64,000 bases of DNA from Pseudogymnoascus verrucosus. Lineage: Eukaryota. The stretch is taken from NCBI GenBank assembly GCA_001662655.1, contig KV460280.1; one strand, written 5' to 3'. Made by a program: the position numbers and the translations under genes. Of this stretch, positions 12,621 through 60,954 are shown in pieces; within the stretch, counting starts at the first letter, position 1, and every line of letters begins with the position of its first letter. The notes under the pieces were generated by a model. It searched no databases. It was given only the letters and a program-made list of their open reading frames with translations, and was not told where the DNA came from.

Positions 12621-13856
12621 TTAGTCCACTCGAAAGATTATTTTTGATGCCTTCATTTGATCAAATAAGTTATATCCTTCCACAACTTCATTTAAAGGCA
12701 TAACATTTTCTGTCATGAAGCTACTATGGTGTTAGCAATGCGCTAGCTTGTTCGTAGAAAGTGACTAACTCAAGTAAATGCTGGGATTCTAATAAACTCT
12801 GTAAAGCTTGCGGGAAGATGCCTTCACGAATGTATGTTAGAAAACGATGACACGATACCGCAGTAGCAATAGACACTCACTTCTGACAGGGCACCTGCCC
12901 ATTTGCATTCTCAAATTTTTCCCATATGCTTCATTTCCTGTCCACGGAATCTCTCCGTTGTGGACTCCAACACTAGATATGCTTCCCCAAGGTCGTAGCA
13001 GGTCGAACCCCATTCGTAACGCAGAACTCAGACCCACAACTTCTATAACAATGTCTGCCCCTCTACCGTTTGTTAACTCTTTTATGCGGCTGCTCAACCC
13101 TTCACGATTAGTCAAATAATTCCAACTCTCTGCCCCAAGTCTGTTTGCGAGCCCAAGCCTGTCTTCCACTCCATCAACAGCGAGTAAGTTCTTTGGCTTG
13201 TACTTCAAGGCGTTGACAAGGGCACAGAGTCCGACGGGTCCGCAGCCAATGACTACAACTGTGCTTTGCTGAATTGCCGCCTCACTCAATCCAGTGAAGG
13301 CATTGGTTGCCGCGAAGTAACCAGTTGGAAAAATATCAGCCATGAGGCAAAGCTTCAATTCATCGATTCCTGGCGGGGCCTTCACAACAGTACTGTCTGC
13401 TAAGGGCACTCTGACATATTCGGCCTGAGCGCCGTCAAGAGCGGGGCAGCCAAATAACATGCTCCTTTCACAACGAGAAGAGTATCCCTCGATGCAGTAG
13501 AAGCATTTCCCGCACGATACAGTGAAGGGAGCGACGATCAAATCGCCTTTCCTGAAGTTGCGAACGTCCGAGCCTAGCTGATCAACTACGCCGGTGAATT
13601 CGTGACCCATAATGAAGCCTGGCACAGTCGCTTGATGGCCCCGAAACACGTGAAGTTCGCTATTTAATAGTTAGTAACAGGCAGTGTAAACTACCAGCAA
13701 CAGTAGGAAGTTCAGTGCTTACCTGCCACATAACGCAGTATACTTAACCTTTACTATAATGTCTGTTGAGTTTTGGATCTGTGGTATAGGCCGAGTTTCG
13801 AGAGCAATAAGCTTTGGGCCCTTGAAAATTACTGCCTGCATAGTATCGTTTGCCAT
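12621..13856 (-). CDS. Zn-dependent medium-chain alcohol dehydrogenase (formaldehyde-dehydrogenase-like branch)
   Basis: MANDTMQAVIFKGP start, ALCG, GHEFTG, CGKCFYC..C structural Zn site, ADIFPTG, GCGPVG Rossmann motif. Confidence 0.92.
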
Positions 13857-14615
13857 AGTCTACTATTTGTTTTTTGACTGTTAAATTTTGCGTTTCTAAC
13901 GTTAAGGAATCACAAAGCAGAGGATGACAATTCTTAAACATCGCAAGAAACCCTAGTCATAACATTAGTTCATACCCCATTATGCGGAGTCCATGATTGG
14001 ACTAGTGTACAGAATTGTTCTAAGTGGTGAGACGGAATCTGTGTGGGAGAGAATTCGCCCTGAGATACTAGGGGCATGTTTAACGGCGCGCGGCGCAGCG
14101 ACACGTGTACGTGGATGATGCGGCACGTTGCTTGCTGTTCGGTTATGCTAAACCATCGGGGTTCGTGGCTGAAGTTCGCAGACACTAGGGACCCTAAATC
14201 CGTGAATCCGGGGAAGAGCCTGACCCATGGAAATCTTTGGCGGGGTTGGGACACTATGGCGAATATGTGCGGAGTTGTCTTAACGTCTTGCGCAACGCCT
14301 GATTTCCTGTGGAAGGGGAGAAAGTAGCGAGTAGACGGAATATCTGTCCCGCAAATGGGCCCGCGACCTAGTGGAGTCAACTGGGACGCCCACACACTCA
14401 GTGTACCCTGACGTGTGCACAACCTTGTGTAGTTGACGCTGCTCATGGAGAACGAAAGCAATGGGGCTTGAAGTTTTGTTGTGCTATTTTCTTTGCGAGC
14501 TTGCTCCGCGTAACTTGCCTCATCCCTAGCCTGCCTCTTGTATTTGTAACTCTGATACGGCAACATTGTAGTTCCTGTCTGTATCACACCCAGCATCTGA
14601 TATTTTACCGCACAA

Positions 14616-16440
14616 ATGCCTACGAAGTCTACGTATGTGATACCGAAATGACCTATCTTCACAGGTGAAAGAGCATGCTAACAAGATTGGAGAACAACAG
14701 ATTTGAAGATGTTAACATTCCCTTGGTGGACGTCTGGACGTTCTTGTTTGAGAAACCAAGAGACTTTCCCCAAGATAAGGGTGAGTTCCAACTTGACACA
14801 TTCCTGAGTTTTGCTGACGTACAGTCATCTACACTGACCCGGTGGTTCCAAGATCGTATAGCTATAGCGACGTGAAGACCGCCACGGCTGGCTTTGGAAA
14901 AGGTTTAAAGGAAGCATGGAACTGGAACAAAAACGATGTTCTTCTGCTATACACACCAAATAGTATCGACATTCCCATTATTACGTGGGGTACTCACTGG
15001 GCTGGCGGAGTTGTCTCACCTGCCAATCCAAATTACACGACAAACGAACTGGCCATTCAGTTAAGAGACTGTGGAGCGAAAGCCATAGTTACTCAGCGGG
15101 CATATTTAAAGAATGCACGTGCTGCGGCTCAGATTGCTGGCATTCAAGAAGATCATATTATTCTCATCGGTGAGAAAAATGATAGCAATTCGGTAATCAG
15201 ACACGTCACCGACATATGCGAGTTGGGGGTGTCCCAGGGTTCCTACCATCAACGAACTATACCAGAAAACCCGGAAGCAGACCTTGCATTTCTTGTGTAT
15301 AGTAGTGGGACAACAGGCCACCCAAAAGGTGTTATGTTATCCCATGTGAACATTGTTTCAAATATCTTGATGTTGAAGGCTGGAGAGGGAGTGAATCTCA
15401 GCTGGGTTGGCGGTCATGATAATAAGGGCGACCGGATTCTCGGCTTCCTGCCTTTCTATCATATCTACGGTAAGTGTTGATATTAGATCCATGGTTTCAA
15501 GGCTAAACTGTTATAAGGACTCACTTCGCTCGTTCATCAGGCAATCTACAACGGCTTGGAACTGATTGTCATGACCAAATATGATCTGGAAAAGTTTTGT
15601 TCCAATATCCAGGAATATAAGATCACCTTGGCCTACGTTGTCCCACCCGTCCTCCTCCAGCTTGCAAAGGATCCCAGTATCGATCGTTTTAACCTGAGTT
15701 CTTTGCGGATGATGAGCTCTGGTGCAGCTCCATTAACAAAAGAGCTAGTTGAGGCGGTTTACCAGAGGCTCAACGTTCCGATTAAGCAAGGCTACGGGCT
15801 CTCCGAGACATCTCCAACCACCCACTCACAGCCTTGGGACACCTGGCGCACGTTTGTTGGCTCCGCTGGTATACTTCTCGCCAATCAAAGCATTAAATAC
15901 ATGTCGGAGGATGGGGATGAGCTGCCAGCTGGCGAGACAGGAGAGCTTTGGATTAAAGGTCCAAATGTTTTTAGAGGCTATCTAAACAACCTAGAAGCTA
16001 CGCAAAACGCCTTGACAAGTGATGGCTACTTCAAAACTGGCGACGTGGGGCATGAGGACAAGCATGGAAACTTATTCATTACAGACCGCGTCAAAGAACT
16101 AATTAAGTATAAAGGTTTTCAAGTTCCACCAGCAGAGCTCGAAGGAAAATTGCTCGGCCACCCGGAGATTGAAGATGCTGCGGTCGTTGGCGTTTACAGA
16201 CCCGAACAAGCTACAGAGGTACCAATGGCGTATATTGTGCTATCAAAGGGTAGTCTCGGTGATGCAGCAAAAGAAAGACAAATCATGGAATGGCTAAGTG
16301 CGAGAGTGGCGAACCATAAGCGTCTGAGAGGTGGCATTGAATGGATCGATGAAGTGCCGAAAAGCTCCAGCGGGAAGATTCTGAGAAGAGTTTTGAGAGT
16401 TCGCGCCCAGAAGAAGAAGCTACCATCAGCAAAGTTGTGA
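14616..16440 (+). CDS. 4-coumarate/phenylacetate-CoA ligase-like adenylate-forming enzyme, PTS1 (-AKL)
   Basis: YSSGTTGHPKG, QGYGLSET, FKTGD, DRVKELIKYKGFQVPPAELE, PKSSSGKILRR. Ends SAKL*. Confidence 0.93.
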
Positions 16441-16688: not shown

Positions 16689-18376
16689 CTACTTAACTAA
16701 TTCTTCTTGTAAATATTCAATGAAATCGACGTACTCTCTGTCTACATCGGATCCAGAACTAGACTGAGTTTTGATATCTATAACCTCGTCGAAGTCTGGC
16801 GTGGAAATATCCGTAATAGATTCAGGTGTTGATGTTGTAGTGGTAGTTGGATGTTCTCGTCGCGGGAACTGCCATTCATCGAGTGAAGAACAGAAAATAG
16901 GTTGCGATACCATTGTGAGTCGTGTGTCCCTTGACGAAAAGCTCGACGCAGGATGGTCGTTACTATGCCAGCAAAGCAGAAGCCTCTCTACGCATAGTAC
17001 GGCATCGGTCCTCATTCTGACAGCGCTAATGGTCTCGGGGTTTAATACGTTTTCATCCAGGTCAAAGTCCTCTAGGCTTAGCAGGTCAATGCGACAGTCA
17101 TCTATATTGATTATGAAACTTCTGCAAGAGTCGCCACTCAACCCTAAAGCCAAGATGCGGTCTCGGAGGAAGGCTGTCCACCAAATCCTGCGGCGAAGAT
17201 GTTTCTTTCGCAATGGTAGGCTTGATGAGGAGACATCGCAATTTAGTCCTAGACTCTTTGAGAATGATGTGGCGAGACTTAACCAGTGCCGTGCTTCGGT
17301 AGTAGAGGAGCAGAGGGTCATAAGAAGCAGCGATTGGATCACAGATAGTCGGTCGTCGCAGGTGTTGAAAGAATAGAGAAGCTGCCAGGCTTGTTAGAAA
17401 GACAGTCCATAATAAAAATGAAACGTAGCCTACAGGGTTTTTACTTACTGATACTCGGTTGAAGAATATTTTCTGGGCGGAGGAGCGACTTTGAAATCCC
17501 GCTTCCGTCAAAGCTTTTGTGCTCAAATAACCAAGTCCAGCATACAAAACTGCCTGGAACAACAAGAAGCTGATCTGTTTCTTGCCCGAATTTTCGAACG
17601 CAAAACTATCAATTCTCTGTTCGTCCAGCTTGTCGTCCATATATTTCACCATCAACAATAATTCTTCCAAGTCAAGTACAGGCATCTGGTTGTAGACGAA
17701 GTCGGCGTATGCTTTCAGCAGCTCTAGTTGCATGGCTGTACTTGGCAACGTAAAAGCATCATGCGAATGCAAGTATGACAGATCGGAGGAACGTAGGTTA
17801 CACGGAAAGGCAGTAAAAAATCTAGGCAAGGGAGGACTTGAGTAACTTGCATCAGATGCAAAACCCGTCCCTATGGAAAAGTCTGGCTGAATCGAAGAAG
17901 GTGAGGAAAGCTCTTCAATCAAGCCTGTCTGTATTTCGCCATTGCCGCTAACCTTTTCTATATCTTCAATATCTGTAGTTTCTTGCTCTCCTACTGTAGA
18001 ATCAGGTGAACCTGCTTCGCTTTTTGGGGGCGCCGATCTATACGAGAGTCATCAACAGTGTTCATTATGCCATGTACTCAACGCTTCAATGAAGGTCTTC
18101 CTCTTACCTTCGACCTGACGTCTTTTTCTTAAGTTCAATGCATGCCATTCCAAAATGGCTACAATTCGCACAGGGTGCTCCGTGCGGTACAATATTGCAC
18201 CTGACTTTCCTCGCTCGGCAAGCCGTGCATGCCCTGGGTGCCCTCTTCCCTCGTTTATAAAGAGGTAGAGGCAGTGACGATAATCCGCTTCTTTCTCCGT
18301 GAGAGAGGGTGTCAATTAAAGGCGGGCCTTGGTAGAAGTCGGACGTATAGGCATATTCGTTGGTATTGGTGTCCAT
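16689..18376 (-). CDS. Zn2Cys6 transcription factor (CTF1-beta/FarB-like)
   Basis: RAPRACTACRARKVRCNIVPHGAPCANCSHFGMAC binuclear cluster, YLHSHDAFTLP, and RRRIWWTAFLRDR fungal TF domain. Confidence 0.88.
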
Positions 18377-19117: not shown

Positions 19118-19965
19118 TTATTTCCCAATAGAATCCACAACGGTTCCATCAAGCGTACGTTTGACATTAGGATCATTGTACGTCAGTGGCTCAATGACAT
19201 AGTAATTTTCGGGCGCAGCTTCTATAACTTGTCCTTGCATCTTCTCATCAAAGAGCATCAATTCCACGACCTTTACAATCTGTGACAACTCAATCCATTC
19301 ATTGTCAAAAGCATCCCATTCATTCTTCTCGAACAGGTTGGTCCTGACGTTTCCAGGACACAGAGTGTTAACCCTAATGCCATCATTATCATAGAAGTGG
19401 CGAGAGATAGCCCTAGCAAATCCGACGACCCCGTGTTTTGCAGCAGTATATATAGGGCAGAACCGAACAGGGTATATGCCCGCGATGCTAGAGTTCAAAA
19501 TGAGACAGGCTTGTTCTCCCTTAGGGTTCTTACGAAAGTAATGCTGTGCAAGGTAGGCGGAATTGATGACGGATTTAAGATCTATATCGATGATGAAATC
19601 CAGCTCGGTTGGTGGACCTGAGATCGCATCCGTTTTTGCATAGAAGTTCTTTCGCTCTCCGACGCCTGCATTTGCAAAGACGAAGTTCAGACTATTATAT
19701 TTCCTGAACACCTGATCAAACGTGTTTGACAGGGATGCGTAGTTGTTGACATCCGTTTTGAAGAAGGAGCCCGACAGTTCTGCTGCTACCTCCTCGCCCC
19801 TTTGCACGTTCAGATCGGCGATGTTGACCGTCCAGCCTTTCTTTGAAAGAGACGTTGCAACTGCAAGTCCCATTCCAGATGCTGCCAAGGCGTCAGTCAT
19901 GATTAGGTACTACAGTCTTTGATGAGCTGCTTACCTCCCCCAGTAATCAGTGCGACGCCAGCCAT
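19118..19965 (-). CDS. Short-chain dehydrogenase/reductase (15-hydroxyprostaglandin dehydrogenase-like)
   Basis: Spliced ALITGGASGMG, FANAG, NSSIAG, catalytic YTAAK, LCPG. Confidence 0.92.
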
Positions 19966-20561: not shown

Positions 20562-21135
20562 ATGCCTTGGCAGAAGATTGACCACCAGTTTGCCAATGTT
20601 AAGCTCAGCTATGACTCTGAGCCGAATTTCCAGCCATGCATCAAAGTATCCGTATTTTTCAAAAAGATTGATTCCATCGACTATGATGCCTTCTTCGGCC
20701 ATTGGCAGACAGTCCATGCTGATCTAGCCATTGCGACACAAGCATTCAAAAATCACATTGTTCGATATGCTCAAGTACGTGTCCCCCAATCCTCGTTATT
20801 TAGCTGTGCCTGGCTCTTTCCACAAAATAGCCTTAAAATTCCCAATTCTCCATGACATACTAACGTCTATACAGCATCACCAAACGCCAGAAATGAAAGC
20901 GCGAGCTGCAAGTCTTGGAGAAAATGTTCTTGAATATGATGGCTGTGCGCAACTATGGGTCCGCACATGGGACGATTGGCTCGCGTTTTACAACAGCAAA
21001 GAGTATGCCGCGGCGCTGAGTGCAGATTGTGACAGATTCATGGCCTTGCCTATGACCTATATGGTTGGTTATGAGAACCTAATTGTTGGCGATGCGTCAA
21101 AGATCATGGGTGGTAAAGATGGCTTTGTTAGGTAG
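20562..21135 (+). CDS. EthD-domain (dimeric alpha/beta barrel) protein, 2 exons
   Basis: FFKK..DAFFGHWQTVHADL..VRYAQ|HHQT..YDGCAQLWV..EYAAALSADCDRFM, a typical EthD pattern. Confidence 0.85.
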
Positions 21136-21609: not shown

Positions 21610-23569
21610 CTATACTTTCTCAACCACTGTGACGGTCACCTTCTCCGTGAGATCATGGCTAGTGAGGTTCCCACTGGTAGGATCTCTGTTCTGACTGCCG
21701 ATTTTAGTAAAGATAAAGTCAATTTCTTCTAAAGTTTTGCCAGATGTCTACAAGAGGAAAGTTTGTTAGCAGGTTTTCAGAGTAAAATATATTATTAATA
21801 TTTTGACATACCTCGGGACATAAGAACCATACAAATGGAACGGCAGCAGCACATGATAAGGCCATCCAAAGCCAAATCTTCCAACCGACATTTTCAAGCG
21901 CAATACCGCCAGCAAATACGGTGATAAAAGAGAAGAGCCATTCCCCAAATGCACCAGCTGCAGCACCAGCATGGCGTAGTTTAAGTGGTGCAATCTAATA
22001 TGTAATGTTAGCATAGTATCTCTAAAAGACTCAGGTAAAATAAAAGCCTCACTTCAGGACCATAAAGCCAGCAAACACCAATCCAGCCATATCCAAAGAC
22101 GATATTGTAGACAAATATCGCAGCAACAGCTATCCACTGTGTACTAGCTGAGGGATTAGGCAGACTAATCATGGCCACAAAGATAGACATGCAGATGGTG
22201 AGCACAATGGCGGAATATAACATGACGTTTCTCCTCCCAACTTTCTCAATAGTGTAGACGAGAGGTATAGTCCCAGCAGCAAACAGGGTGTTCATAATTG
22301 CTGCTAATAGCTTCGTAAGAAAAGGTGATAAGCCGACTTGTGCAAAAATCACAGTACTATAGTACACAGACAGATTGATGCCTAGAGGGTCACGATTAGC
22401 AATTAATTCTTACTATAATGCTTATGAGGATGCGCTTACCCATCATCTGCTGGAGCGCAAGAATCATAAAAGAGATACGAATGCGTCGACCAGCACGAAG
22501 ATAGCTTCGGTCCCAGATCAAGTCGAGAATATTAAAGTCGCTATTATTATCCTCTTCTAACTTGATGCTAGAAATGATATCTTGCTTTGTGCTTTGGACA
22601 GCTGGGTCGTCTATGTCAGCATCGAAAAGACGACAAAGCACATCATCCCCTTTACTAATATATCCCTTGGCGTAATACCATCGAGGAGTGTCGGGCAGGA
22701 TGAACATGCCAACACTACCGATGATAGCAAAAATGATCTGAAATCCAATTGGTAGTCTCTATAATCCAAGTTAGTAATCAATGTTTACTTTACCTAGAGA
22801 GGTCCGCTTTACCCACGAGGCTTGATTGGTCATACTAGTAAAACCAAAATCAACCCAATATGCAAGTGCTGCACCCGCAACGAGGAAAACGCAGGTCACA
22901 GCGACTTGTGGCCCGCGCTCTTTAATCTCAGTGCTCATTTCGGCCTGATACGTCGGAACTGAACAAGAGATGAACTAATGACGAGAGTCAATATCGTGTT
23001 CTGTAGAGTGAGAAGAATATGAACGATCATACCCCAATGCCAAAGCCCTGAAATTCAATTAGCAAGCTTCATAGTAATACAGCACGCAAAACAACTTACG
23101 CATATTATGCGTGCAACAATGATCTGAGCAACTGACCACGATGACGCTTGAAGGCTAGCTCCGATAATGACGAGTAGGTTGCCCAGGAGGATACAGTTGC
23201 GGCGACCAAGGGGCATACCAACCATAGTAACCATCAAGGAGCAGACAGCAGCAGCAAGTGTGTAAGAAGATGCAATCATGGGAATGACATATGTCCCAGT
23301 TGGATACTAGAAATAAGCATTAGCAGACCAACGCAATGCTTTTAGAGTAAGCACCTACTCCCATTGCTCTATGAAATGGCTCAGTAGTCTGAACCCCTCC
23401 AAGGACACCTGCGTCGTAGCCATACATGCAGAAAGACTATAAGCAATTAGTGGCTAGATTCTCCCTCTTATGGGCAATTTGAAGATGCTTGCGCGAGGAG
23501 ACTTACAGTAGCACAGCAAGTTGCCATTATTCTTTTGAGGGTTTTACCTCTAATTTTTGATTCGAACAT
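21610..23569 (-). CDS. MFS sugar-porter family transporter, multi-exon
   Basis: GYDAGV, LGRRN, PDTPRW, ALQQMMGIN, VGRRN, WLYGPE, PETSGKTLEEID. Confidence 0.9.
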
Positions 23570-46304: not shown

Positions 46305-46385
46305 GTGGGGCCTATAGAGTGTGGGGTAAAATCCGGGGTTGGCACCATGATTGGCGGGACTGTAATCCCGAAGTGATTTGCGGGG
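46305..46385. promoter_or_regulatory. Four SYGGRG (CreA/Mig1-type) boxes upstream of the carboxylate permease
   Basis: GTGGGG 46305, GTGGGG 46321, CCGGGG 46333, GCGGGG 46380. Confidence 0.5.
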
Positions 46386-46924
46386 ATCGATGGCATGGTC
46401 AAAGTGCAAGTAATACTCCTGACAAACTTGATCGGAATGCCGTAAACGCCAGCAAAAGCAAAATATTATGGAGTATCCAACTTACCTGAAGTGACGTCGC
46501 TGTCAATTCCAATATTGACCCGCCTAAACGAAATATAAGGATCCCGGTATTCGATGATTGGGACTCGGCGCAACAGTTCCATATGGGCATGATGCAAGTT
46601 TGTGTCGCTAGACAGCGTAAGATCCGCCAATCTCCGAGCCTTCTTATTGCAATGAATATCAAATCGTTGCAACATGGCATACTTCTCCGACCTTCCGAAA
46701 TTGTTATCGTTCGTTGCTTTGACGCGACAGCCATACACTAGTCAAGGTTGGATTGAATCCTGCGTACGCAGATCATAACTGCTTATTTAATCCGGAGAAA
46801 AGTCTAATACAATAGTATCAAGCGAATCACACATAAAAAATCCAGTTAAACAGAATATGCAAGGTTTTGATGCAATTGAGTTATTGTGACTATATACAGA
46901 GAGATAATCGTTACCGCACTGTAG

Positions 46925-48866: not shown

Positions 48867-49491
48867 TTCACTTGATAAACGTACTATACGGTTCAAAACG
48901 TCGCAATTCTAGTATATCAAATTATACATTTGTAAATAGTAAAAGTTCGAATATAAGTCGCGGAATTTCAACATCACCGAAAGAATTTGGCGAGGGAATA
49001 TAACACGCTAGATGTAGCGATGGTCGGTCGGGTAATAATGCGGGGGAAGATGATGGGGAATACTATGCCGGCTATCTAAATCGTACATGAAAAATACAAA
49101 TTTATCGCCCTGGTATGTCCTCGATGTGAGAGTTCATGGAAGTTGACTTCCGTGGACCGAATAGGAGGCGACCTGCACGATGTCGGGGATCCTCTACAGG
49201 GTACCCCTCTTCACAAAACCCTAAGTTCTCCAATTAGTCTTAGCTTTTGCATGGATTATGTGGATCATGAACCCCGCAGGATGGACCCACCGCATGAACC
49301 ATGCGGGATAAATCCGTTTGAAAAAGTATAGTAATACTGGTACATGCATTGGGCGAAGTGAAAGCTAGAAGAAGGGAAATGGGGAATGGCCGTTGCCCGT
49401 ATTATAAGGTACTAAGCTGCCGTCGGTCTGTTCAGTAGCCATCTGCGAGTAGATTTTTTCACGGTGCTACCATCATTTATTTGCTCCCAAT

Positions 49492-51320
49492 ATGGCATAT
49501 TTACCCTGGAGAGATATTGAGTTGCCTGAGATAGACTTGGTCAGTCTGGCCTTTGGTAAGTCAATGGGAAAAGACAGCACGATCATACAAGATTTCGAGG
49601 AATATGGACTTACTGAATACCGGCAGATTCACCTTATTCATGGGCCAACGATGCGACCATCCTCCACGTTGATGCTGCGGACGAAACCAACTACATTAAC
49701 AAATCCCAAGCGAGGACTATTATTAAACGCCTGGCATATGTGTTACGCCATCGATTTAACGTTGGGAGCGGTGCATTATATCAAGATGTAGTAACTTGCT
49801 TCGCATCCAACCAGATTCTTCTTCCTACAGTGTTCTTTGGGATAATTGCAGCCGGCGGCGTCTATTCCGCGGCATCTTCGTCCTTGACTCCCTTTGAGTT
49901 GTCGAGGCAGCTCAAGACGAGTAAAAGCAATTTAATCATTGCCAGCAAAGATTCTTTAGAAGTGGCGCTTAAATCTGCGAAAGAATGCGGCATTCCACTA
50001 GATAGTGTCCTGGTTCTCGACAGCGCAAGACACCAGAGGAGTCTGAGAGATACGGTTCAGCCAGAACGAAATTACCTACAAGCTACAAACGAACTAAATT
50101 GGGCTAGGCCCACCGACTTGGATACATTGGAGAAGAAGCCAATATGCCTTATGTTCTCCAGCGGGACGACGGGCCCGCCGAAGGGTGTAATGCTGTCGCA
50201 CAAGAACATTGTGGCCCAGAGCCTCACTTGGCAAGCAACGTTGCGTGATTCCCTAAACACCGCGAAGGTTGCTAAAACTGGCAAAGACCCGAAGAACTTT
50301 AAGTATGGGATCGTTGCTCACCTCCCAGCCGCCCATGTTGCGGGATCGCAGGGTTATTTTATGAACGGGATGATGGCGGGCGGTGCTACGTTCTGGATGA
50401 CCAAGTTCGTTCTTGCCGACTTCCTCCACTACACCAAAAAGTATCGACCTACCCACATGTTGAGTGTGCCGTCGATTTATCTACAGATTATCAACAGTCC
50501 AGATGTCACTGATCATTTCCACTCACTTGTACATGCGCAAGTGGGTGCGGCGCCTATGGGACCGGGGTTACAGAAACTCGGACAGGAGAAGATAGGGTGC
50601 TACCTCAACCAATCTTATGGACTTACGGAGACGAGTGCATCATTGACAATGACGCCATGGTACCATAATGATACTACGGGAGGAGTTGGAGCGCTGCTCC
50701 CCAATAGCAGACTCAGAATTGTGAATGACAATCTTGAAGACGTGGTGGAAGGACAAGAAGGTGAATTTCTCATCAAGGGCCCAATCGTTACTCAAGGGTA
50801 CTACAATAACCCCGAAGCAACTGCGGCGACATTTACCTTAGACGGATGGCTTCGCACAGGCGACATTGGCCTGCGGAGGGATGGATTGTTCTATATCGTT
50901 GATAGAAAAAAGGTGAGACATAGACCAGCACAATAATCCCAAAAGCGTAAAGCTAACATATCTTAGGAACTTATAAAGTACAAGGGGCTGCAAATCGCTC
51001 CTGCTGAGCTAGAGGCATACCTACTCAGTCATGAAAGTATCCTAGACGCAGCAGTCATCGGCGTAGAAGATCCCAAGGTCGAAAGAAACGAGGTACCAAG
51101 AGCTTACATCGTACGGAAAGGGGATAAGAAATCGCGCTTGATTACAGAACAGGAAGTGAAGGACTATGTTAAGAAGAATCTGGCAGCGCATAAGCAGCTA
51201 CGGGGTGGCGTAGTTTTTGTGGATAATATTCCAAAGAGTTCATCGGGCAAGATTTTGAGGAGGGAGTTGAGGGACCATGCGAAGAATGAAAAGCCACAGG
51301 TGAGGCTGTCGAAGTTATAG
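49492..51320 (+). CDS. Second 4CL-like acyl-CoA ligase, PTS1 (-SKL)
   Basis: FSSGTTGPPKG, QSYGLTET, LRTGD, DRKK|ELIKYKG, PKSSSGKILRR. Ends LSKL*. Confidence 0.93.
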
Positions 51321-52108
51321 ATGTAGATATATCTTATAAATAAAACTACATGTTTGGATCAAATTGCCACTTGTTCCCTATAATACGGCCTGATAACAAG
51401 GTAATTGAAATTTATTTCAGATGAAGTCTACGAAATAGTCATGAATGAACGATATGATGAAGCCGCGACGGAGAGATCAAAGACAACTCAACCACATGCA
51501 ATATAGTTTGTATTTGTTGCCTTCATTCATAATCTAGTTGCCGAGGTATTCTTCATCCCATGCTTGCTAGAGTTGGAGAACTGCCATCACAAATGGTGTT
51601 TGAAATATGCTTAGGTGACTGGAATTGAATCCTTGCATAGCCTAGGCAATTCCAATGATCCTTTTCCGCTTTTGGGTTCATCACGGCAATCAAAATCGTT
51701 CGCTTTTCGAATCTTAGCATCCGGAGGTGATGTGACAATGCGCATGAACCTTGCAAATCCAGGGAACTTTATCCCGTTGGAATTACAGTGCCGATATCCG
51801 CCACTAGTAGACGATCACCCTTTCCACCATTCCCTAATCGGTTGTTGCGTTCCAGGTCTATTTCAATCTCATTTCTATGGAGCAAATGCTAGGATAGATC
51901 GAGACGCGTTTCTTTCCCTTGTCGTTGTTCGCACTACTGATCTTGTCTCCTTCAAGTACTCATACTTTTGCAACTTGAGCCCCCATTCTTCACCGAATCT
52001 TCTGCTCTATCTCGCAAGTCGCGTAATCTGTTCTTGTTATTTTTCAAGATTTCATATATACAATCTACCAGCAACCGACATATTTTGATCAGAAACATTT
52101 AAACAGCT

Positions 52109-54102
52109 ATGGAAGTGGTTATAATAGGCGCTGGACCGAGCGGAATCGCGATAGCGCATTCGCTGAAGCATAAACTTGGATTCAATAAGTTCACAGTCAG
52201 ACTTTTGAGCTTATTTTCATCAGAATTTCCCTAACCTTGATATTCAGATATATGAGAAGCTTGACGGTCCTGGAGGCACATGGAGAACGAACACATACCC
52301 TGGATGGTTTGTAAACCAATCCATTAGAACATTGCGCATGGCTAACTACTCAACTAGTGGTTGCGACATTCCAAGCCACCTATACTCGTTCAGCTTTAAT
52401 CTCAACCCCGATTGGAGCAAAGAGCTTTGCGACCAACCGGAAATTCTTGAGTGTTTGTGGCTCCATCATGGTCTAGTGACGAAATATTGACGATATCAGA
52501 CATGGAAGCGACGGTGGACAAATTCAATTTACGGCCCCATATGCGATTTGTGACTAAATGTCTTGGGGCACAATGGATCTCGAAAACTAAGAAGTGGGAG
52601 ATTGAACTCCAAGACATGATAGGCAGGAAATTCACAAAAGTAGCCGACATTTTCATCAGTGCCGTAGGGGGTATATCAGAACCCCGAGATGTCAAATTTC
52701 CTGGCATGGAGAAGTTCCAAGGTCCTATCTTTCACACTGCACGATGGGATCATTCGTACGACTACGAAGGAAAACGAATGGCAGTGATTGGAAATGGCTG
52801 CAGCGCGGCTCAGGTTGTTCCAAATGTGGTTCACAAAGTCCAGTATCTCAAACAGTAGGCATAACGTTTTGCCCTGCGCAAGTACTCATACTGACACCGC
52901 GATTTTAGATTTGCGCGGAGCCCTCAATGGTACCACGAGCGCCCCAATCGAGAATTCTCCAAGCTAGAGAAATTCTGCTTCCGCTATATTCCTCTCTGGC
53001 AAAGATACCATCGTCTATCCCTCTTCACGGGGAATGATGCTCTTGTCGAGACTTATGGGGCAGGAGAAAAGGCCCAGCGAGTGCGCACAGCTACCGAGTA
53101 TGCTGCAAGGAATTACATATATGAGAATGCACCAGAGAAATATCACCATTTCATCGTCCCTGAGTTCCCCCTCGGTAAGATGCCTTCTCATATCAAGCAT
53201 AGCATGGCACTAATTACACAATGTAGGATGTAAACGCCGTATTTTCGACCCTGACTATCTTTCGGCCTTGCACGAGGAGAGTATGAGCTTGGTTGATGAA
53301 GGGATTAGAGAGATTAACGAAGCGGGCATTACTAGCGAACGAGGAACATACGAGGAGTTCGATGTCATAGTTCTTGCGACTGTAAGAAAAAAACTCTATT
53401 ACATGGTCAGAAGCTAATGCCAGGCAGGGTTTCAAGGTCTCAGAGTTCCTGACCCCGATGAAGATCGTGGGGCGGCAAGGCAAAGAGCTCTCAGAGCAGT
53501 GGAAAGAATCCGACGGTGCTCAAGCATACTATGGAACTTACGTGCACAATTTCCCTAATTTTGCAATTCTGTAAGTTTTTTAAATGCTCTGTACAGGAAA
53601 TGTTTTAACACAGTGAAGCTTTGGTCCGAACTCGTTCCCGGCCCACAACTCTGTTATTTTCGCAACGGAGGTTCAAGCGGCATTCATAGTCAAAAGTCTT
53701 TTTACACCTATCATGAACAATCGTGCATCGATCATAGAGGTCAAACAAGAAGCAGAAGATAGTTTCACTGCAGGCGTGCAATCACTTCTTAGTGGTACTG
53801 TCTTTAGTGCAAATTGTTCCAACTGGTATATCAACTCCAAGGGAAAGAACTCCGCTTCATGGCCCGGGTATGCGTCTACATTCTGGCGCGAGACATTTTT
53901 CCCTCGCTTCAAAGATTTCAAGCTTGAAGGTGGCTCCACACTCTGGTGGCCGAAGTGTATTGTGCGATGGTTGTTTACGGGACTATTTAACACGTTGCTC
54001 TCTCAGCACACCATGACATTTCTACTGGCCTTTGGAATTATCAAAAGGGAGCGAATTCTGCAAGATATCGCCAAGCTTGTGCAACGGGCACAGGCGCGAT
54101 GA
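52109..54102 (+). CDS. Type I Baeyer-Villiger monooxygenase, multi-exon
   Basis: IIGAGPSG, GGTWRTNTYPG, BVMO fingerprint FQGPIFHTARWD, VIGNGCSA, ATGF. Confidence 0.92.
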
Positions 54103-54828
54103 GAGATAACTCAACAAGAGAATTCGAGTAGATATGTTGGGCATTCGGTCATTTGTTGAGTCCAAGGAGATTACCTAGTGTACAAAGGGCATTCCATTCT
54201 CGCTGGGTTTTCGCTGGCATAGATTAGAGAAATAGAAGACTTCGCTATTTCGCGACCAAGGCTGATCGAACTGAAAGTGGCGTTTGTGAATATCGTCAAA
54301 CATTAGAACTGATTTCTTGTTCGTGCAAGCACTTCTCAACCTCTCTTCTGGACAGCGGTTCGGTTCCGCTGTGTGAAGTACCAGCGACTTAAAAACCACC
54401 CTGATATCTACGGAACTCGATTTCCGAGATTATATTTGGTTTACCTACCACATGCTGACCCACAGTTTGTTTGCGCTACCTGAGGTATCCCACCTACGTG
54501 ATTTCGCGGGGCAAAATTCTTATTATGAGCGCGGTTTAGCTCTGGCCGTCAACAACCCCGCGATTTATTCTGATATGACTCGCAGGTCACGTTGGCTAAT
54601 TCTATTATGTTGCATTCTGATTTACGACCGAGAATGCAAGGGGAAGTGGGGCGGGGCCTGCCTGGAGAGGACGATAAGAAAGGCAATGGGAAGGTTGACA
54701 ACTCCGCTATGATTGATCGCACTTTCACGGTGAAATATTACCCACTGAAACTCTCATAAACACCGAATAGTCACCAAACTTCGCAAAGGCACGGACAGTT
54801 GCACAGCTCCACCTCCTACCTCAGGGCC

Positions 54829-56125
54829 ATGGTCTACATTCCTAAGTCGACCTTTGTGGTAGATGTCCGATTGATCAACACAACGACAGATGTCACCGTA
54901 AAATCAGGTGACCTACTGCAGCCAGAACTGAAAGGACAAGACACCCTCTATCTCCCCACTTTTGCCTTCTTGATCCGTCACCGGGCCTCTGGCCGTTCTG
55001 TTCTATTCGACTGCGGATCCCGCAAGGACTGGAAGAACTTGCCTCCAGCTATCGTCCCCTCTGTAGCAACTTCCGGGGTCCACATAGAAAAGAGCGTTGA
55101 CGAGATCCTCCTAGAAGGAGGCCAAGACTTAAATGAGCTCAGCTCGATTATCTGGAGGTAGTTACCGAATTCTTGAGCTATGATCAAACCATCACTGATA
55201 CGTTAATTTGGCAGCCACTGGCACTGGGATCACATTGGTGATGCAAGCCGTTTTCCTAAAACCACTGAGCTCGTGGTAGGACCAAACTTCAAAGAGAATT
55301 TCATGCCGGGATACCCTACAAAAGAGGATGCACTGTTGCTAGACTCTGATTTCGAGTAAGCCTCCATCGAGCACTGCCTGCCTGGGACTGACGAGCTGAC
55401 ACAATTTATAGAGGGCGCAATGTACGGGAAATAAAATTCTCCGACGATCTCCAAATTGGAGGCTTCCCAGCCCATGACTTCTTTGGGGATGGAAGTCTGT
55501 ATCTGCTCGATGCCCCGGGTGTAAGTCAATTTGGTGCTTCCCACTCTCTCGTTTCCGCTGACAGATTTATGTTTAGCACGCGGTTGGTCACATCGCCAGC
55601 CTCGCTCGCACCACGTTCAATACATTCGTCTTGTTAGGCGGCGACTCATGTCACTTCCCTGGTGTATTCAGACCTTCGGCACATCTTACGCTCCCCTCGA
55701 CAATTCCATCTACTGTTCGGATGGACGCTCGGTTCCCACGCCCCTGCCCTAGCTCCTGCTTTACCAGCATTCATCCAGTGCAAGACCAGGCCTCCTCCAC
55801 GCCCTTCTACAATTTGCCACAGGCCAAGGGGGGGTGGTATGCCGATCCGCCCCGCGCACAGGAGAGCGTCACGAGCCTCTCGGAGTTAGACGGGGACGAT
55901 AATATATTAGTCTTGATAGCACACGATATGGCGATGTTAGAAATTAAGGAGCTGTTCCCGAGGCATAATATCAATGCCTGGAAAGAGAAGGGCTGGAAGG
56001 AGAGATTTGCATGGAGTTTTTTGAATGAATTGCCCAATGACGCTGGGAAGGCGAGGAGGGAGTTTGAAGATGCGGAAAGGTTGGATATCAAGAGTCCAGA
56101 TAACGAGGATTGGAGATCGAGGTAG
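54829..56125 (+). CDS. Metallo-beta-lactamase-fold hydrolase (lactonase/lactamase-like), 4 exons
   Basis: FDCGSRKDW, SHWHWDHIG (HxHxDH), PGHAVGH, GGDSCH, AHD. Confidence 0.9.
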
Positions 56126-56456
56126 TGCATGACAATTTAATTTTGTATATTAAGTGAAGGACGAAGGGACTATCGAAGGCAAACCACAAATCGAAATTAA
56201 ATGAAGGTATTGTGCCAAAGAGAATGGTAGTCGCTCATAGTCAGCGAAGTGTCGACTTCCTCCATTCGCTTCTTGTGGAGGATGTGGTGCCTGCATGCCT
56301 GCGGGGTAGCGCTAGTAGAAGTGCTTGCCGTCCCCGCATTCCGGAAAGATCCATTACCAACCACCATACTCCGCACATCAATAATTTACACTATGCCTCT
56401 TGTTGTTTCCTGTTCGTATACTTAATGCTATTCATTCCAATAACACAGCGGACATC

Positions 56457-59226
56457 ATGCAAAAAGAAAGTGCTCCGAAGAAGCACATTTCCTCGGCCTG
56501 CTCGTTTTGTCGGCACCGGAAGGTGAAGGTGAGACACCCTTGCTTCAGCGCAGGGTTCGCGACAATCAACATGCTCATCGATATCGTTATATAGCAAGAC
56601 TGACATATTTATGCCCAATAGTGCGATGGGAAGACACCGACATGCTCTAACTGCACACTATACAACCATGCCTGCGAATATTCTCGCAACGACAAGAGAA
56701 AGTTCGTGATAGCTCGCAGAATCCTGGGGATCCAGAGACTTGCTGACAGCGACGGCACCCGATAGGCTTTCCCATAAGAGAACTATACAATCACTTAACA
56801 ACCGCGTGGTATTTCTTGAAAATCTCCTGAGGAGTCATGGTATTGAGGTGCCACCGGACACGTCGGTGGAAGCCGGGAATCTCTCAGCTCCTCCAGTCTC
56901 CCACGAATACGAGCGAAACCAAGACGACGGTGGAGTCAACTACGCCGCTTTGCCAAACTTCAATGAACATACTTTTATGGCTGAATTGAACCCAGAATTA
57001 ACAAATGCAATACAATTCGAAAAATCGGTAGAGGGTCTATTTGGAATGAACGAAATGGGGGATTTTCATGCAGATTATACCGATGTTACAAATATCTTTC
57101 AGTCGCCCCAAAATTCCGGCCATCCCTTCTATCGTTTCAATCAAGCAGGCAATAGAACCCATGGACATGAACAGCAACTAGCGACCGGAGAATATGATGA
57201 CATCTTAGATGAACCAGATACGGTAGCAGATCAGGGCGCTCCCATATTAATGCCGCAATCTATGTTGCAATCTACGAATGATCTGGAGCACGGAAATACG
57301 ACAACGGGCGGGCAAATTGACGGTTCCCAGGCGATCTTACTCTCTCCATCTAATAACTCTTCTGCAGACCATGATGAGCAGAGTGACGACGATGAGGTTG
57401 TAGATCAATTATCGGCTCGGATTGGTACATTCCAGATTACTGAGGATGGTCAGCTGCGGTACTACGGAGCTACCTCTAATCTTCACATCTTGCAGAATGG
57501 ATTATCTTCTCTGCCACGGGCAGTCCATCGATCAATACGCCTCGAGGGAGAGGAGGCATTAACTCGTGCGGAACTCAACCAGGGAATAGATCCTGATCTC
57601 GAGAAGCACTTGGAGGATCTTTACTTTAGATGGGAAGACCCAGCCATTCATGTCGTGGATGAAGAAATGTATTTTCTCGCAAAGAGTGCGTACTACTCAG
57701 GAGAAGATGGAAACCCGTTTTATTCGGAAACATTGAAAAATACAATGTAGGTTTAACATAGATAACTTAGACAAAATTTAGAAAGGAATCTATCTCTGAC
57801 ACCCATTTCAGATGCGCTATAGGCTCTCAGATGTCATCAGATGATAGGCTACCTGATTCTGGCGCCGAGTTCTTCAATGCCCGAGCGAAGCTTCTCCTGC
57901 AGATCGAAATGGACAGCCCCTCTGTCGCTACTATACAAGCCCTTGTGATTATGAGTGCAATAGAAGCAGCTTCTACTAGAGATTCAAGGGGGTGGCTTTA
58001 CAGCGGTGAGCGCCTCTTGGATTTCAATGAAAATTCAAGCTAATTGATATTTTTTTTAGGAATGGCTATGAGACTGAGTGCAGACCTTGGCCTACATCGT
58101 GATCCGAGCAAGGTGGTGCAGGATGGTAGTCTTTCAGAACGCGAACTTGACGTGCGCCGTACTACATTCTGGGGCGTTTTTGTGCATGATAGGTAAGTCT
58201 TATGCACTTGGGCGGCGAGCAGGAGCTTATTGAAAATCACAGTATGTGGAGCTTGTATGTCGGGCGGCCTTCGAGCATCAACATTCAAGATATCTCAATA
58301 TCTCGACCATCACAAGAACATGATAGGCTAAGATCGAAAAAGTGGAGTCCCTTGCGGGACTCGGATGAAGGCAAGCCAGGAACAGATCAGGAACATGAGG
58401 GGTGGTTTGATCCAATTGAAGCTTGCGCCGATGCGAATGTATCGCTTTGCTTCATGATGAGGCAACTTAGCCAGACTATGTACACCTCATGAGATCTTGT
58501 GCATAATAATTCTTGCTGATTCATGCACAGATATTCCGATAAAACATTCTCCGATGACGGTATCCGGGAATTAGCTGCAAGCATGCGCGTCGAGTTTGCC
58601 ACATGGCAAAACGCCCTTCCCGAAGAATTGAGAGTTGATATGTCTGATGAGAATCGGTTCTATCTCCCTCACATTCTGCAGTTACAGTAGGTTCACTCCC
58701 TAGCTTGGCGTCGTTTTGTTTGACATTATACAGCATGCAATTCTACACGATTTCGATACTGCTCCACCGACCTTTCTTCTCACGTACCCTCAAAGAGCCT
58801 AAATTTTCCGATGATCAACTCTCCAATCACCCGCGCAATATATGCATCGATGCAGCACAATCCATCGTAAAGCTCCTGCGTATCTACCGTAAGCAGCATA
58901 CCCTTCGCCGGCCTAATGTTCATATCGTCCACCTCGTCTTCACAGCATCTTTGATTTGTATATACAACGCATATAGCAGCAAAGGGGCGACTGTTACGAA
59001 ATGCCTCAATGATCTTCAATTCTGCTGTCAAGCCCTTGGGGAGATGGGAGAGGCTTGGGGAAATTCGACAAGAGCGCTAGAGGTGATCATTTGCATCAAA
59101 CGGGACTGGTTCAGCAAGACCCGAAATTTGCCACAGACGAAGAGGCGAAGCCCAGCTGGTGATGACCGTGGATTAGGTGATGACAGACGGAAGAGACGAC
59201 TCACTCATGGTCAAGAAGAGCTCTAA
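56457..59226 (+). CDS. Zn2Cys6 transcription factor with fungal-specific TF domain (NirA-like architecture)
   Basis: Spliced ACSFCRHRKVK|CDGKTPTCSNCTLYNHAC, GQLRYYGATSN, RGWLYSG|MAMRL, WSLYVGRP, LLHRPF. Confidence 0.9.
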
Positions 59227-59358
59227 CGAAGAGGTTCGGACATCGTTAATAGTCTATAAGCACAAACTGTACCCTAATGTCGAAGGAGATCATGATATCA
59301 ATTGAGATGAAGTACCTATTTAATCATGACATGCTGTATGATAACCTTTTAGTCCTAA

Positions 59359-60954
59359 TTAATCCTGAGTATTCCCAATCGTCACGGTTTTCAAGTTCTG
59401 GTACTCCGCCAACCCATACCGACTCCCCTCTCTTCCTATGCCACTCTCTTTTATGCCTCCAAATGGTGCTTCCGCCGCGCTAATCAATCCCGTATTCACT
59501 CCAACCATGCCGACTTGCAGCTTCCCCGCTACTCTCATCACAGTCCCGATATCCTTGCTAAAGAAGTAACCTGCAAGGCCCAGCTCAGTATCATTAGCGA
59601 GCGCGAGAGCTTCGGCTTCGGTAGTGAAGGGGAAGATTGCCGCCAAAGGGCCGAAAGTCTCGTCGGTAGCCACGGCCATGCCTGGATGGCAGTTTGTGAT
59701 GACAGTAGGCTCGTAGAAGTACCCTTTGAGGTTTTCTGGCGCCTTGCCGCCGGTTCGGAGAATACCGCCTTTACTAATTGCGTCCTTGACATGAGTATCT
59801 ACCTTCTTGACCGCGCTAGCGTTGACGAGCGGACCTTGGCTGGTGTCTTCTGCGAGGCCAGAACCGAGCTTGAGTGCTTCAACTTTAGCCACAAGCTTTG
59901 TTGTGAATTCCTCGACGACGGAGGTGTGGATGAGGAGACGGTTTGCGCACTATCGAAAGTCAACTTGTTAATTCGTGGCAAGCTGCAGATACTCAAGAAC
60001 TCAAGTGAAAACTTACCACACAAGTCTGCCCTGAGGACCGAAATTTCGACACCATCGCACCCGCGACCGCTAATTCCAAATTCGCATCCTTAAACACAAT
60101 AAATGGCGCGTTACCTCCTAACTCCATGCTGACTCTTTTCATGGTCTCTGTTGCCATTCGTGCCAGCATCTTGCCCACGCCTGTGCTGCCCGTGAAACTG
60201 AGCTTCTTAACTTTAGGATGGGTTGCCAGCTGTAACGAGGCTTCTCTATCCTTAGTGGGAACGACGTGTAGACATGATCCAGGAATCCCCGCCTGCAATG
60301 CGAGCCTAGCAAGGGCTATGCAACTAAACGGCGTCTCACTAGGTGGCTTGATCACTACTGAGCACCCTGCCGCGATTGCAGGTGCGATCTTGCGGGTGAT
60401 CATAGCGGCGGGAAAGTTCCATGGGGTGATAATGCCACATACACCTACGGGCTCTTTAAATGTTAGGACGGTTGTGTCATGATAGGAAGAGGGTATTGTG
60501 TCGCCGTAGTTGCGAGTGGCTTCCTCAGCGAACCAGGCGATGAACGAGGTGGCATAAGTGATTTCGCCGCGAGCCTCAGCTATGGTCTTGCCATTTTCTA
60601 GGGATAGAATGGTTGCCACTGTCGTCGAATCAGTCTCATTGCCCGAACAGTGGTGCGTAGTATCTTACAATCTTCCAAGTTTGCAAGGATTAAATCGTTC
60701 CATTTACGTAGAATTACTCCTCGCTCTTTGGCAGTAGTTTTGGAATAAAACTCTTGATAGCCGTCGTGAGCTGACTCAATGGCATCAATAAAGTCTTGCT
60801 TGGTAAAGTCCGCACATTCACGAAGGACATCTCCTGTTGAGGGTTCGATTACGGGGAATGTCTTGCCTAAGGGGGCGAACTTCCAGCTTCCGCCGATGAG
60901 ACCTTGGGAATTGAAGAGCGACGGGTCGCGGAGATTGTAATTGTTAGACTCCAT
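59359..60954 (-). CDS. Succinate/glutarate-semialdehyde dehydrogenase (GabD/Uga2-like ALDH)
   Basis: ITPWNFPAAMITRK, FTGST, MELGGNAP, SKFRSSGQTCV|CANR, ETFGP, PFGGIKESG. Confidence 0.93.

Follow-up and report, generated by a model that had tools for sequence, protein, structure and literature searches.

A conserved catabolic gene cluster of Pseudogymnoascus verrucosus with a proposed carboxylase-free route for β-branched or alicyclic compounds

A 64,000-nucleotide stretch of contig KV460280.1 from the soil fungus Pseudogymnoascus verrucosus (GenBank assembly GCA_001662655.1; hereafter the window) carries a run of 22 genes without breaks that occupies exactly positions 12,621–60,954. The cluster is real, conserved and apparently undescribed; catabolic clusters that lack a backbone gene are already a known kind. 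It is very probably one old catabolic cluster, conserved across Leotiomycetes, Dothideomycetes, Sordariomycetes and Eurotiomycetes. We propose, with a probability of roughly 0.55, that the P. verrucosus copy is an expanded form that degrades a β-branched (isoprenoid-type) or alicyclic compound without a biotin carboxylase, by hydrating, cleaving and oxidising it. A branched β-carbon blocks normal β-oxidation. That the cluster is degradative and directed at a branched or alicyclic compound was already the reading of a first-pass annotation of this DNA, and it is supported here by gene content, by co-conservation in the four classes and by the assignment of two candidate C-C lyases.

Genes were called from splice-aware models and from two Pfam scans, the first with 146 frames and the second with 106. 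They contain introns and are separated by 21 intergenic gaps of 132–863 bp each. The Pfam and NCBIfam families comprise two Zn-dependent alcohol dehydrogenases (ADH), two short-chain dehydrogenases/reductases (SDR) and two aldehyde dehydrogenases (ALDH), of which g22 is of the succinate-semialdehyde dehydrogenase (SSADH) type. The other enzymes are two CoA ligases, an enoyl-CoA hydratase (ECH), a nitronate monooxygenase (NMO)/FabK-like flavoprotein, an old yellow enzyme (OYE), a type I Baeyer-Villiger monooxygenase (BVMO), a metallo-β-lactamase (MBL) hydrolase, an EthD protein, an AtuA protein and a TLP1 protein. Transport and regulation are represented by two sugar-porter and one anion-type member of the major facilitator superfamily (MFS), two Zn2Cys6 transcription factors and one bZIP-DUF3425 factor. 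The genes and the repeat that brackets them are as follows (position in the window, strand, description; L and P numbers denote the loci and proteins used for comparison).

g01, 12,621–13,856 (−): Zn-dependent ADH, 355 amino acids (aa), 4 exons; Pfam ADH_N/ADH_zinc_N; model; 62% orthologue in L004
g02, 14,616–16,440 (+): acyl-CoA ligase, presumably 4-coumarate-CoA ligase (4CL)-like, 554 aa, ends AKL; Pfam AMP-binding; model
g03, 16,689–18,376 (−): Zn2Cys6 transcription factor, 516 aa; Pfam Zn_clus, Fungal_trans; 45% relative annotated as a BVMO fusion in Cadophora (P0247)
g04, 19,118–19,965 (−): SDR, 264 aa; Pfam adh_short; YxxxK present
g05, 20,562–21,135 (+): EthD-domain protein, 157 aa; Pfam EthD; adjoins AtuA in L002 and L004
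g06, 21,610–23,569 (−): sugar-porter MFS, about 498 aa; Pfam Sugar_tr; one exon of the model approximate
g07, 24,304–26,124 (+): sugar-porter MFS, 502 aa; Pfam Sugar_tr; 33% identity to g06
g08, 26,943–28,373 (+): Zn-dependent ADH, 352 aa; model, GHExxG motif; 60% relative annotated as an AtuA fusion in Paramyrothecium (P0073; Pfam: ADH)
g09, 28,839–29,909 (+): SDR, 299 aa; Pfam adh_short; 36% relative beside AtuA in L004
g10, 30,494–32,268 (+): ALDH, 489 aa; Pfam Aldedh; 68–72% orthologue adjoins BVMO in Stagonosporopsis and Boeremia
g11, 33,121–35,150 (+): AtuA/DUF1446 with a fused C-terminal domain, 604 aa; Pfam PF07287, PF23544; structural match CmlA
g12, 35,867–37,847 (+): bZIP-DUF3425 transcription factor, 605 aa; Pfam DUF3425, weak bZIP_1; 37% relative in L004
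g13, 38,535–39,635 (+): OYE ene-reductase, 366 aa, single exon; Pfam Oxidored_FMN; HGANGY motif
g14, 40,499–41,341 (−): ECH of SidH (mevalonyl-CoA hydratase) type, 280 aa, ends SKL; best Protein Data Bank (PDB) match 7OEQ
g15, 42,068–43,436 (+): NMO/FabK-like flavoprotein, 358 aa, ends SKL; Pfam NMO; NCBIfam FabK below cut-off
g16, 44,256–46,076 (−): anion/carboxylate-type MFS, 503 aa; Pfam MFS_1; 53% relative annotated as an AtuA fusion in Verticillium (P0106)
g17, 46,925–48,866 (−): TLP1, thiolase-like, ends TKL; PF18313; homologue P0322 matches 4EGV, E 2e-52
g18, 49,492–51,320 (+): acyl-CoA ligase, 567 aa, ends SKL; Pfam AMP-binding; 34% identity to g02
g19, 52,109–54,102 (+): type I BVMO, 547 aa; both fingerprints; best PDB matches cyclohexanone monooxygenases (CHMO), E 1e-57; identical to P0239
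g20, 54,829–56,125 (+): MBL-fold hydrolase (lactonase-like), 375 aa; HxHxDH; PDB acyl-homoserine lactonases, E 9e-9; AttM below cut-off
g21, 56,457–59,226 (+): Zn2Cys6 transcription factor, 781 aa; model; 86–90% identical 763–782-aa proteins lie two tags from BVMO in other strains
g22, 59,359–60,954 (−): SSADH-type ALDH, 492 aa; top NCBIfam match TIGR01780 SSADH with both exons tested
Direct repeat, left copy in two parts, 11,772–12,297 (11,772–11,904; 12,222–12,297) (+): blastn self-comparison
Direct repeat, right copy, 61,156–61,397 (61,156–61,289; 61,319–61,397) (+): blastn self-comparison; run X11 departs at 61,192

The g19 model is identical to the database protein P0239, annotated in P. 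verrucosus, the g13 open reading frame was recovered letter for letter, and the catalytic motifs examined are intact. Five enzymes end in peroxisomal-type tripeptides (g02 AKL, g14 SKL, g15 SKL, g17 TKL and g18 SKL), four of them within g14–g18, and the C-termini of g05 and g11 carry no such signal. The 22 genes include no polyketide synthase, non-ribosomal peptide synthetase (NRPS), terpene synthase, P450, dioxygenase, acyl-CoA dehydrogenase, classical thiolase or biotin carboxylase. The first-pass annotation had described an uninterrupted catabolic set with these limits, equipped with three regulators and as many transporters and free of a biosynthetic backbone gene, and the domain scans agree; an NRPS-like adenylation-domain gene starts 1.7 kb past the right end. 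Its count of 23 genes has to be reduced by one. The additional candidate, a 112-aa frame at 46,402–46,737, has no Pfam match and lies in a stretch that is replaced in run X11.

Linkage between the cluster genes was followed in other fungi. Twelve AtuA loci from metagenomes were compared, and four of these are close to g11 (61–70% identity, or 72% over the matched exon for L002). L004, from an unrelated fungus, holds relatives of g01 (62%), g05 (61%), g09 (36%), g11 (61%), g19 (50%) and g12 (37%) within 18 kb. It also has an MFS transporter, another SDR and an MBL lactonase that is not orthologous and has an apparently interrupted frame. L002 carries an acyl-CoA dehydrogenase, AtuA and EthD (81%), and L001 is too short to show neighbours. 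In a survey that looked up eight of the nine listed BVMO matches and left four further taxa unjudged, AtuA and BVMO are 7 and 6 accessions apart in two Leptodontidium assemblies, 6 in Leptodophora, 5 in Cadophora, 3 in Eremomyces and 7 in Boeremia. EthD is the steadiest partner of AtuA, at 4, 16, 6, 4 and 10 accessions in five out of five pairs that had been preselected as likely to share a contig. In Fusarium oxysporum, EthD, AtuA and an acyl-CoA dehydrogenase directly follow one another, and another Pseudogymnoascus retains the order from g11 to g19 (tags 2983 to 2975). Mis-fused annotations give further neighbours: AtuA with g08 (60%), AtuA with g16 (53%), BVMO with g03 (45%) and BVMO with g10 (68%).

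Genes from the left (g01, g03, g05, g08), the middle (g10, g11, g12, g16) and the right (g19) of the cluster are thus neighbours elsewhere, which argues against three independent modules. The earlier proposal of about three modules, each with its own transcription factor, is not borne out, since these genes intermingle in other fungi. Some modularity is possible, as g18–g21 are recorded in more Pseudogymnoascus strains than g11.

The AtuA protein g11 is a confident member of its family, with three exons that score 126, 263 and 139 bits on PF07287 against a cut-off of 22.8 and that cover profile positions 1–437. A phmmer search of AtuA against the PDB gave no match. The alignment-based AlphaFold model of P0124, which is 95% identical to g11, has a mean confidence score (pLDDT) of 88.9 and matches chain A of 9EVF and 9ERQ (Foldseek E 9.8e-22; Z 30.4–30.5, root-mean-square deviation 3.4), with the runner-up at Z 10.1. 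The superposition covers 412 of 456 residues at 17% identity, and the fold is shared over residues 5–455. These entries are citramalate lyase with ADP/pyruvate (9EVF) and with AMPPNP/citramalate (9ERQ), and the PDB labels the matching chain an AtuA-family protein. GR-x-x-D and LYE are identical between g11 and 9ERQ_A in what is a partial alignment, and G179, R180, D183, Y275 and E276 are invariant across 77 fungal rows. In a preprint, the Raoultella enzyme CmlAB is employed to split citramalate directly, with pyruvate and acetate as the products (bioRxiv 10.64898/2026.01.16.699985). The literature searched, which takes in a minority of the subscription journals, contained no primary CmlAB paper, and neither a plasmid search nor a family search in four bacterial genomes yielded a CmlA-type sequence.

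The modelled fold suggests that g11 probably works like an ATP-using, CoA-independent lyase that takes acetate off a tertiary 3-hydroxy acid. Its substrate is probably not citramalate; as to a methylaspartate pathway, no glutamate mutase or methylaspartase is present among the 22 genes. While the fold is shared, CmlAB has two subunits and g11 is a single chain of 604 aa. A biotin carboxylase lies near six of 12 bacterial AtuA loci scanned (96 hand-picked frames) and in no part of the fungal cluster; such a carboxylase would create a substrate of the tertiary 3-hydroxy-acid type. The locus with the closest bacterial AtuA (38–39%), L014:430–9,746 from Saccharopolyspora, encodes two CoA ligases, a luciferase-like monooxygenase, an ECH, a lactonase-like domain and an APH kinase, with no carboxylase seen nearby.

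The second candidate lyase is g17. Its model matches PF18313 and carries the TLP1 fingerprints YSCF, GGL and NGG, with an extra C-terminal barrel and without the CxS cysteine; YSCF stands at the position of the thiolase NEAF/HDxF motif and the thiolase nucleophilic Cys is missing. When the two are aligned, P0322 has YSCF where 7YVY has HDAF. Among 24 aligned TLP1 rows, YSCF is found in 20 and Y-x-C-F in 21, the remaining three being gapped or cut. The TLP1 family was described in 2012 with its function unknown, and the MsTLP1 (4EGV) structure paper found that the protein did not act as a thiolase, that Gly replaces the nucleophilic Cys and that NEAF is replaced by YSCF (PMC3406046). The retro-aldolase Sal employs Tyr302 and Cys304 of a YDCY at the same position for its cleavage, which releases acetyl-CoA (PMC12329534). 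This Tyr-x-Cys catalytic pair is present at the HDxF-equivalent position in the TLP1 alignment.

The neighbouring hydratase g14 has SidH (7OEQ) as its best PDB match (E 1e-93), well ahead of the next (E 1e-44). The substrate type of SidH is 3-hydroxy-3-methyl-acyl-CoA; the 22 genes include no partners of the SidA, SidD and SidF kinds (ornithine oxygenase, NRPS, acyltransferase). Of 26 long TLP1 homologues, two (P0326 and P0437) are fusions with an ECH, and one of these ECH domains is 46% identical to g14. The SidH likeness, the Tyr-x-Cys pair and the fusions together suggest that g18, g14 and g17 form a peroxisomal ligase-hydratase-aldolase set for β-branched acids, in which g17 is likely an acyl-CoA retro-aldolase partnered by g14. 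Shy-Sal and ChsH1H2-Ltp2, hydratase/aldolase pairs that act on steroid side chains, and likewise MsTLP1 resemble g17 in a thiolase fold that lacks the nucleophilic Cys, in having Tyr-x-Cys where thiolases have NEAF/HDxF, and in a hydratase partner. In Shy-Sal and ChsH1H2-Ltp2, however, this partner is of the MaoC/DUF35 kind, whereas the cluster has a crotonase-fold hydratase and a TLP1 with its own C-terminal barrel.

Downstream of a C-C cleavage, the predicted ketone arm would be complete, with BVMO g19, the lactonase-like MBL hydrolase g20, an ADH or SDR and SSADH-type g22. Type I BVMOs are defined by two fingerprints, and g19 holds FxGxxxHxxxW(P/D), GGxWxxNxYPGxxxD and the FAD-binding GxGxxG. 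Its PDB matches are BVMOs, the match to CHMO being one at family level, and it has no peroxisomal signal.

Beyond the observed gene set, motifs, folds and linkage, a route can be outlined whose reactions and substrate class are inferred from protein families. The compound would be taken up by g06, g07 or g16, an alcohol would be oxidised to an acid by ADH or SDR and ALDH enzymes (g08, g01, g04, g09, g10), and g13 may reduce an enone. Water would then be added to a 3,3-disubstituted enoate to give a tertiary 3-hydroxy acid, either as a CoA ester in the peroxisome (ligases g18 or g02 and SidH-type g14) or as a free acid in the cytosol (EthD g05). A retro-aldol cut would release a C2 unit and a ketone, with TLP1 g17 yielding acetyl-CoA and ATP-using g11 yielding acetate. 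The ketone would be converted by g19 to a lactone or ester, which g20 would hydrolyse, and an ADH and g22 would carry the product on to a (di)acid. In the reverse order the route would begin with the opening of a substituted ring ketone; the resulting 3-substituted glutarate or adipate would then be dehydrogenated, hydrated and cleaved. Cleavage first fits the window, because no acyl-CoA dehydrogenase is needed; ring opening first fits the acyl-CoA dehydrogenase that lies beside AtuA in Fusarium and L002. That the true substrate is a plant terpenoid or apocarotenoid is plausible at somewhat less than even odds. In its most specific form the proposal would be a widespread, undescribed fungal pathway for β-branched isoprenoid or alicyclic plant acids that is free of a carboxylase. 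An EthD hydratase would supply the AtuA lyase and a SidH-type hydratase the peroxisomal TLP1 retro-aldolase, and both lyases would pass a ketone to one BVMO-lactonase arm under the control of the DUF3425 bZIP; this combination as a whole we regard as doubtful.

Several observations weigh against the proposed route. The window contains no acyl-CoA dehydrogenase, true thiolase or P450, g11 and CmlA have a low sequence identity of 17%, and the profile match between them is weak (E 0.1). In Verticillium, the AtuA paralogue VdAtuA3, which may or may not be orthologous to g11, is mitochondrial and unclustered, and its deletion grows normally on citronellol (PMC13399572). In the Pseudomonas Atu route the acetate-releasing step is assigned to LiuE and not to AtuA, according to a review (PMC4097962). 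DUF1446 itself is a single table entry in PMC5371717, and the passages searched in PMC5595782 and PMC4350166 hold nothing on it. The first-pass annotation had used AtuA as a marker of terpene use, which is too strong given the normal growth of the Verticillium deletion and a cluster that lacks the biotin carboxylase by which Atu is defined. MsTLP1 has no known activity. The g17 frame stays open only if GG at 47,985–47,984 (−) serves in place of AG as the acceptor of intron 3, which is 52 nt long and has an ordinary donor and branch site, or if an alternative in-frame acceptor is used at the cost of 15 residues that are conserved in homologues; the downstream exon is well conserved. The site may reflect recent damage, an acceptor of a rare type or an error in the sequence, and the g17 of this strain may be crippled. 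A role of EthD g05 as hydratase for the free acid is the weakest assignment; it is drawn by analogy with what we take to be examples of such EthD hydratases, and the PDB search found no solved relative of g05.

Linkage has its counterexamples as well. L003 (AtuA 70%) has no partner gene in the 5 kb downstream, and its sequence ends upstream; the distant fungal AtuA loci L005–L012 and L013 (44–53%), three of them shorter than 5 kb, hold no relative of g05, g12 or g19. BVMO and the listed, distant AtuA of Halenospora are on separate contigs. Two fragmented Pseudogymnoascus assemblies likewise have AtuA on one short contig and BVMO on another, and EthD does not share a contig with AtuA in Dactylonectria or in the Pyrenochaeta pair. 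Eleven genes (g02, g04, g06, g07, g13, g14, g15, g17, g18, g21 and g22) are linked to AtuA only within Pseudogymnoascus in our data.

These last genes bear on an alternative that stands close to the earlier modular reading and that we consider unlikely, namely that a conserved core (EthD, AtuA, ADH, ALDH, BVMO and bZIP) was joined in Pseudogymnoascus by unrelated catabolic gene groups, such as a peroxisomal block g14–g18 and g20–g22, with their own substrates and regulators. Half of the 22 genes without AtuA linkage outside the genus, the wider record of g18–g21, the restriction of the motif TGACTCA to the g04–g10 and g14/g15 promoters, and two C-C lyases that seem redundant for a single substrate would all fit such a patchwork. 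The linkage gaps, however, reflect limited data and are no demonstrated absence, genes of all three parts are mixed in other fungi, both candidate lyases and g14 indicate one substrate class, and a single direct repeat encloses all 22 genes.

Two further explanations concern the substrate and the purpose of the set. A hydroxycinnamate or lignin-derived aryl ketone could be activated by 4CL-like ligases, hydrated, cut by retro-aldol cleavage to an aldehyde or acetophenone, and passed to a BVMO of the 4-hydroxyacetophenone monooxygenase (HAPMO) type and a hydrolase. This would suit g02 and g18, which we presume to be 4CL-like where Pfam itself says AMP-binding only, and the g10 orthologue, which scores well on phenylacetaldehyde dehydrogenase models, and g16, with a weak HpaX match, all below cut-off. 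But no ring-cleaving dioxygenase, hydroxylase or P450 is found among the 22 genes, g14 is much nearer to SidH than to hydroxycinnamoyl-CoA hydratase/lyase (E 3e-26), and SSADH-type g22 suits aliphatic ω-oxo acids, so that an aromatic substrate appears improbable. Still less probable is that the genes serve as tailoring or self-protection for the adenylation-domain gene at 62,650. Only 1.7 kb separate that gene from g22, runs X2 and X6 show it collinear with the cluster, and SidH-type, EthD and BVMO enzymes are known from biosynthetic clusters too. Run X11, in contrast, has g16–g22 on one contig that departs at 61,192 and shows zero depth between 62,010 and 64,000, the 20.7 kb of L004 revealed no adenylation-domain gene, the right repeat copy separates g22 from this gene, and the content of the unit is oxidative, with importers and no backbone gene.

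The borders of the cluster are marked by a two-part direct repeat that brackets all 22 genes (81% over 134 nt, E 6e-29, and 76% over 79 nt in a blastn self-comparison) and that is the only repeat found in the window. At either end it sits upstream of a minus-strand gene (the chitinase and g22). It may be the scar of an insertion, or else a regulatory element that was duplicated. A transposon origin was considered and set aside, with no inverted repeat and no further copy in the window. Elsewhere, among the matches listed, X2 and X6 each have one extra matching contig, and X2 and X11 have loose ends resembling the left copy. The left flank consists of a GH18 chitinase and a proteasome subunit. 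The chitinase (8,200–11,260, minus strand), which borders the cluster, has several chitin-binding domains and further unassigned exons. On the right, a gene with an adenylation domain of the FAAL/NRPS-like type begins at 62,650 and runs off the window end at 64,000; we take it to resemble the adenylation-thiolation-thioesterase (A-T-TE) class of NRPS-like enzymes. Contigs of X2 and X6 are collinear with 44,001–64,000, this gene included, and a single 37.7-kb contig of X11 covers g16–g22 and departs within the right repeat copy, with zero depth over the last 2 kb of the window from 62,010. The GC content at third codon positions has a median of 0.49 in the cluster genes versus 0.61–0.72 in three left-flank genes. 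An old insertion into the intergenic region between the chitinase and the adenylation-domain gene might account for the repeat, the departure of X11 and this low value; no empty site was seen. Between g15 and g16 lies a decayed 28S rDNA fragment (43,640–43,990; Rfam match 43,710–43,796, minus strand).

Horizontal transfer from another class is unsupported, as g11 falls within a clade of 12 Leotiomycete rows (SH-aLRT 97) in a quick tree of 53 rows, that is, g11 and 52 hand-picked homologues. Among the matches listed, the closest named AtuA (94%) is from Pseudogymnoascus. In some Pseudogymnoascus genomes this clade is represented by another AtuA as well (P0002, P0127, P0130; 77% to g11), and there may be a second related locus, perhaps carrying the missing acyl-CoA dehydrogenase. 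A Botrytis cinerea AtuA on a 7.8-kb contig (P0007) groups tightly with the Cadophora and Leptodontidium copies, which hints at recent exchange or contamination. To the right of the related cluster in L004 (17,900–20,753) are degenerate transposase-like frames with many stops. L013, filed under a bacterial metagenome-assembled genome, has an intron-split AtuA and a fungal transcription factor domain and is therefore probably fungal DNA in a bacterial bin.

The intergenic DNA is rich in two short motifs, both chosen post hoc and with putative cognate factors. RCCCCGC, the CreA-type site, occurs 12 times against 1.7 expected (0 of 300 shuffles), an excess that fits a catabolic regulon. TGACTCA occurs seven times against 1.8 expected (1 of 300 shuffles), and the FarA-type CCTCGG shows no enrichment (3 against 3.9 expected). 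TGACTCA sites may be targets of g12; L002 and L004 each have one just upstream of AtuA. The motif is nevertheless not enriched in L004 (4 against 3.2), and with its post hoc choice we have set it aside as the g12 site.

The Pseudomonas Atu/Liu system for the use of acyclic terpenes shares with the cluster the AtuA, hydratase, CoA ligase, SDR, ADH and ALDH types and faces the same β-branch problem, but it has a geranyl-CoA carboxylase (AtuC/F) and an acyl-CoA dehydrogenase, neither of which is among the 22 genes, while the cluster adds BVMO, MBL hydrolase, EthD and TLP1. The bacterial chn route for cyclohexanol uses CHMO and an α/β-hydrolase lactonase, and in the Arthrobacter cyclohexylacetate route a 1-hydroxy-cyclohexylacetyl-CoA lyase hands a ketone to a BVMO. 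Like these routes the cluster has a BVMO, a lactone hydrolase, an ADH and a semialdehyde dehydrogenase, and the Arthrobacter logic is the one proposed here. The hydrolase of the cluster is of MBL fold, however, and g19 is distant from CHMO; the analogy with these routes is functional and not orthologous.

To our knowledge, little is known of how fungi mineralise branched terpenoid or alicyclic plant compounds. A 2021 review names the BVMOs of Grosmannia clavigera as the sole fungal enzymes characterised in terpenoid detoxification (PMC8120277). This fungus has a 30-gene terpene-responsive cluster with the limonene BVMOs CMQ_6956 and CMQ_7007 (PMC3680317, PMC8120277, PMC4368105, PMC12628601). 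Compared by description, it is likewise large, without a backbone gene, composed of BVMO, ADH and β-oxidation-type genes, and tied to growth on plant terpenes; its BVMOs are listed there as peroxisomal, in contrast to g19. Among the 120 AtuA, 9 BVMO and 61 EthD matches listed, which are representatives only, no Grosmannia protein is named. The first-pass annotation recognised no characterised fungal cluster with this content. An EthD-AtuA-BVMO cluster is indeed not described in the literature searched, and to this extent the statement stands; the G. clavigera cluster is nonetheless the closest system on record.

Ascomycetes from four classes, living in litter, on roots or as endophytes, have the cluster, and three orphan families, the fungal AtuA proteins, TLP1 and the g05-type EthD subfamily, become direct targets for enzyme assays. 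If the proposed route is true, it would give the TLP1 family and the fungal DUF1446 proteins their reactions, as two C-C lyases not yet assigned in fungi, and would represent a carboxylase-free answer to the β-branch problem together with two C-C cleaving biocatalysts. If the cluster is instead a patchwork, its conserved EthD-AtuA-BVMO core would still be an uncharacterised pathway.

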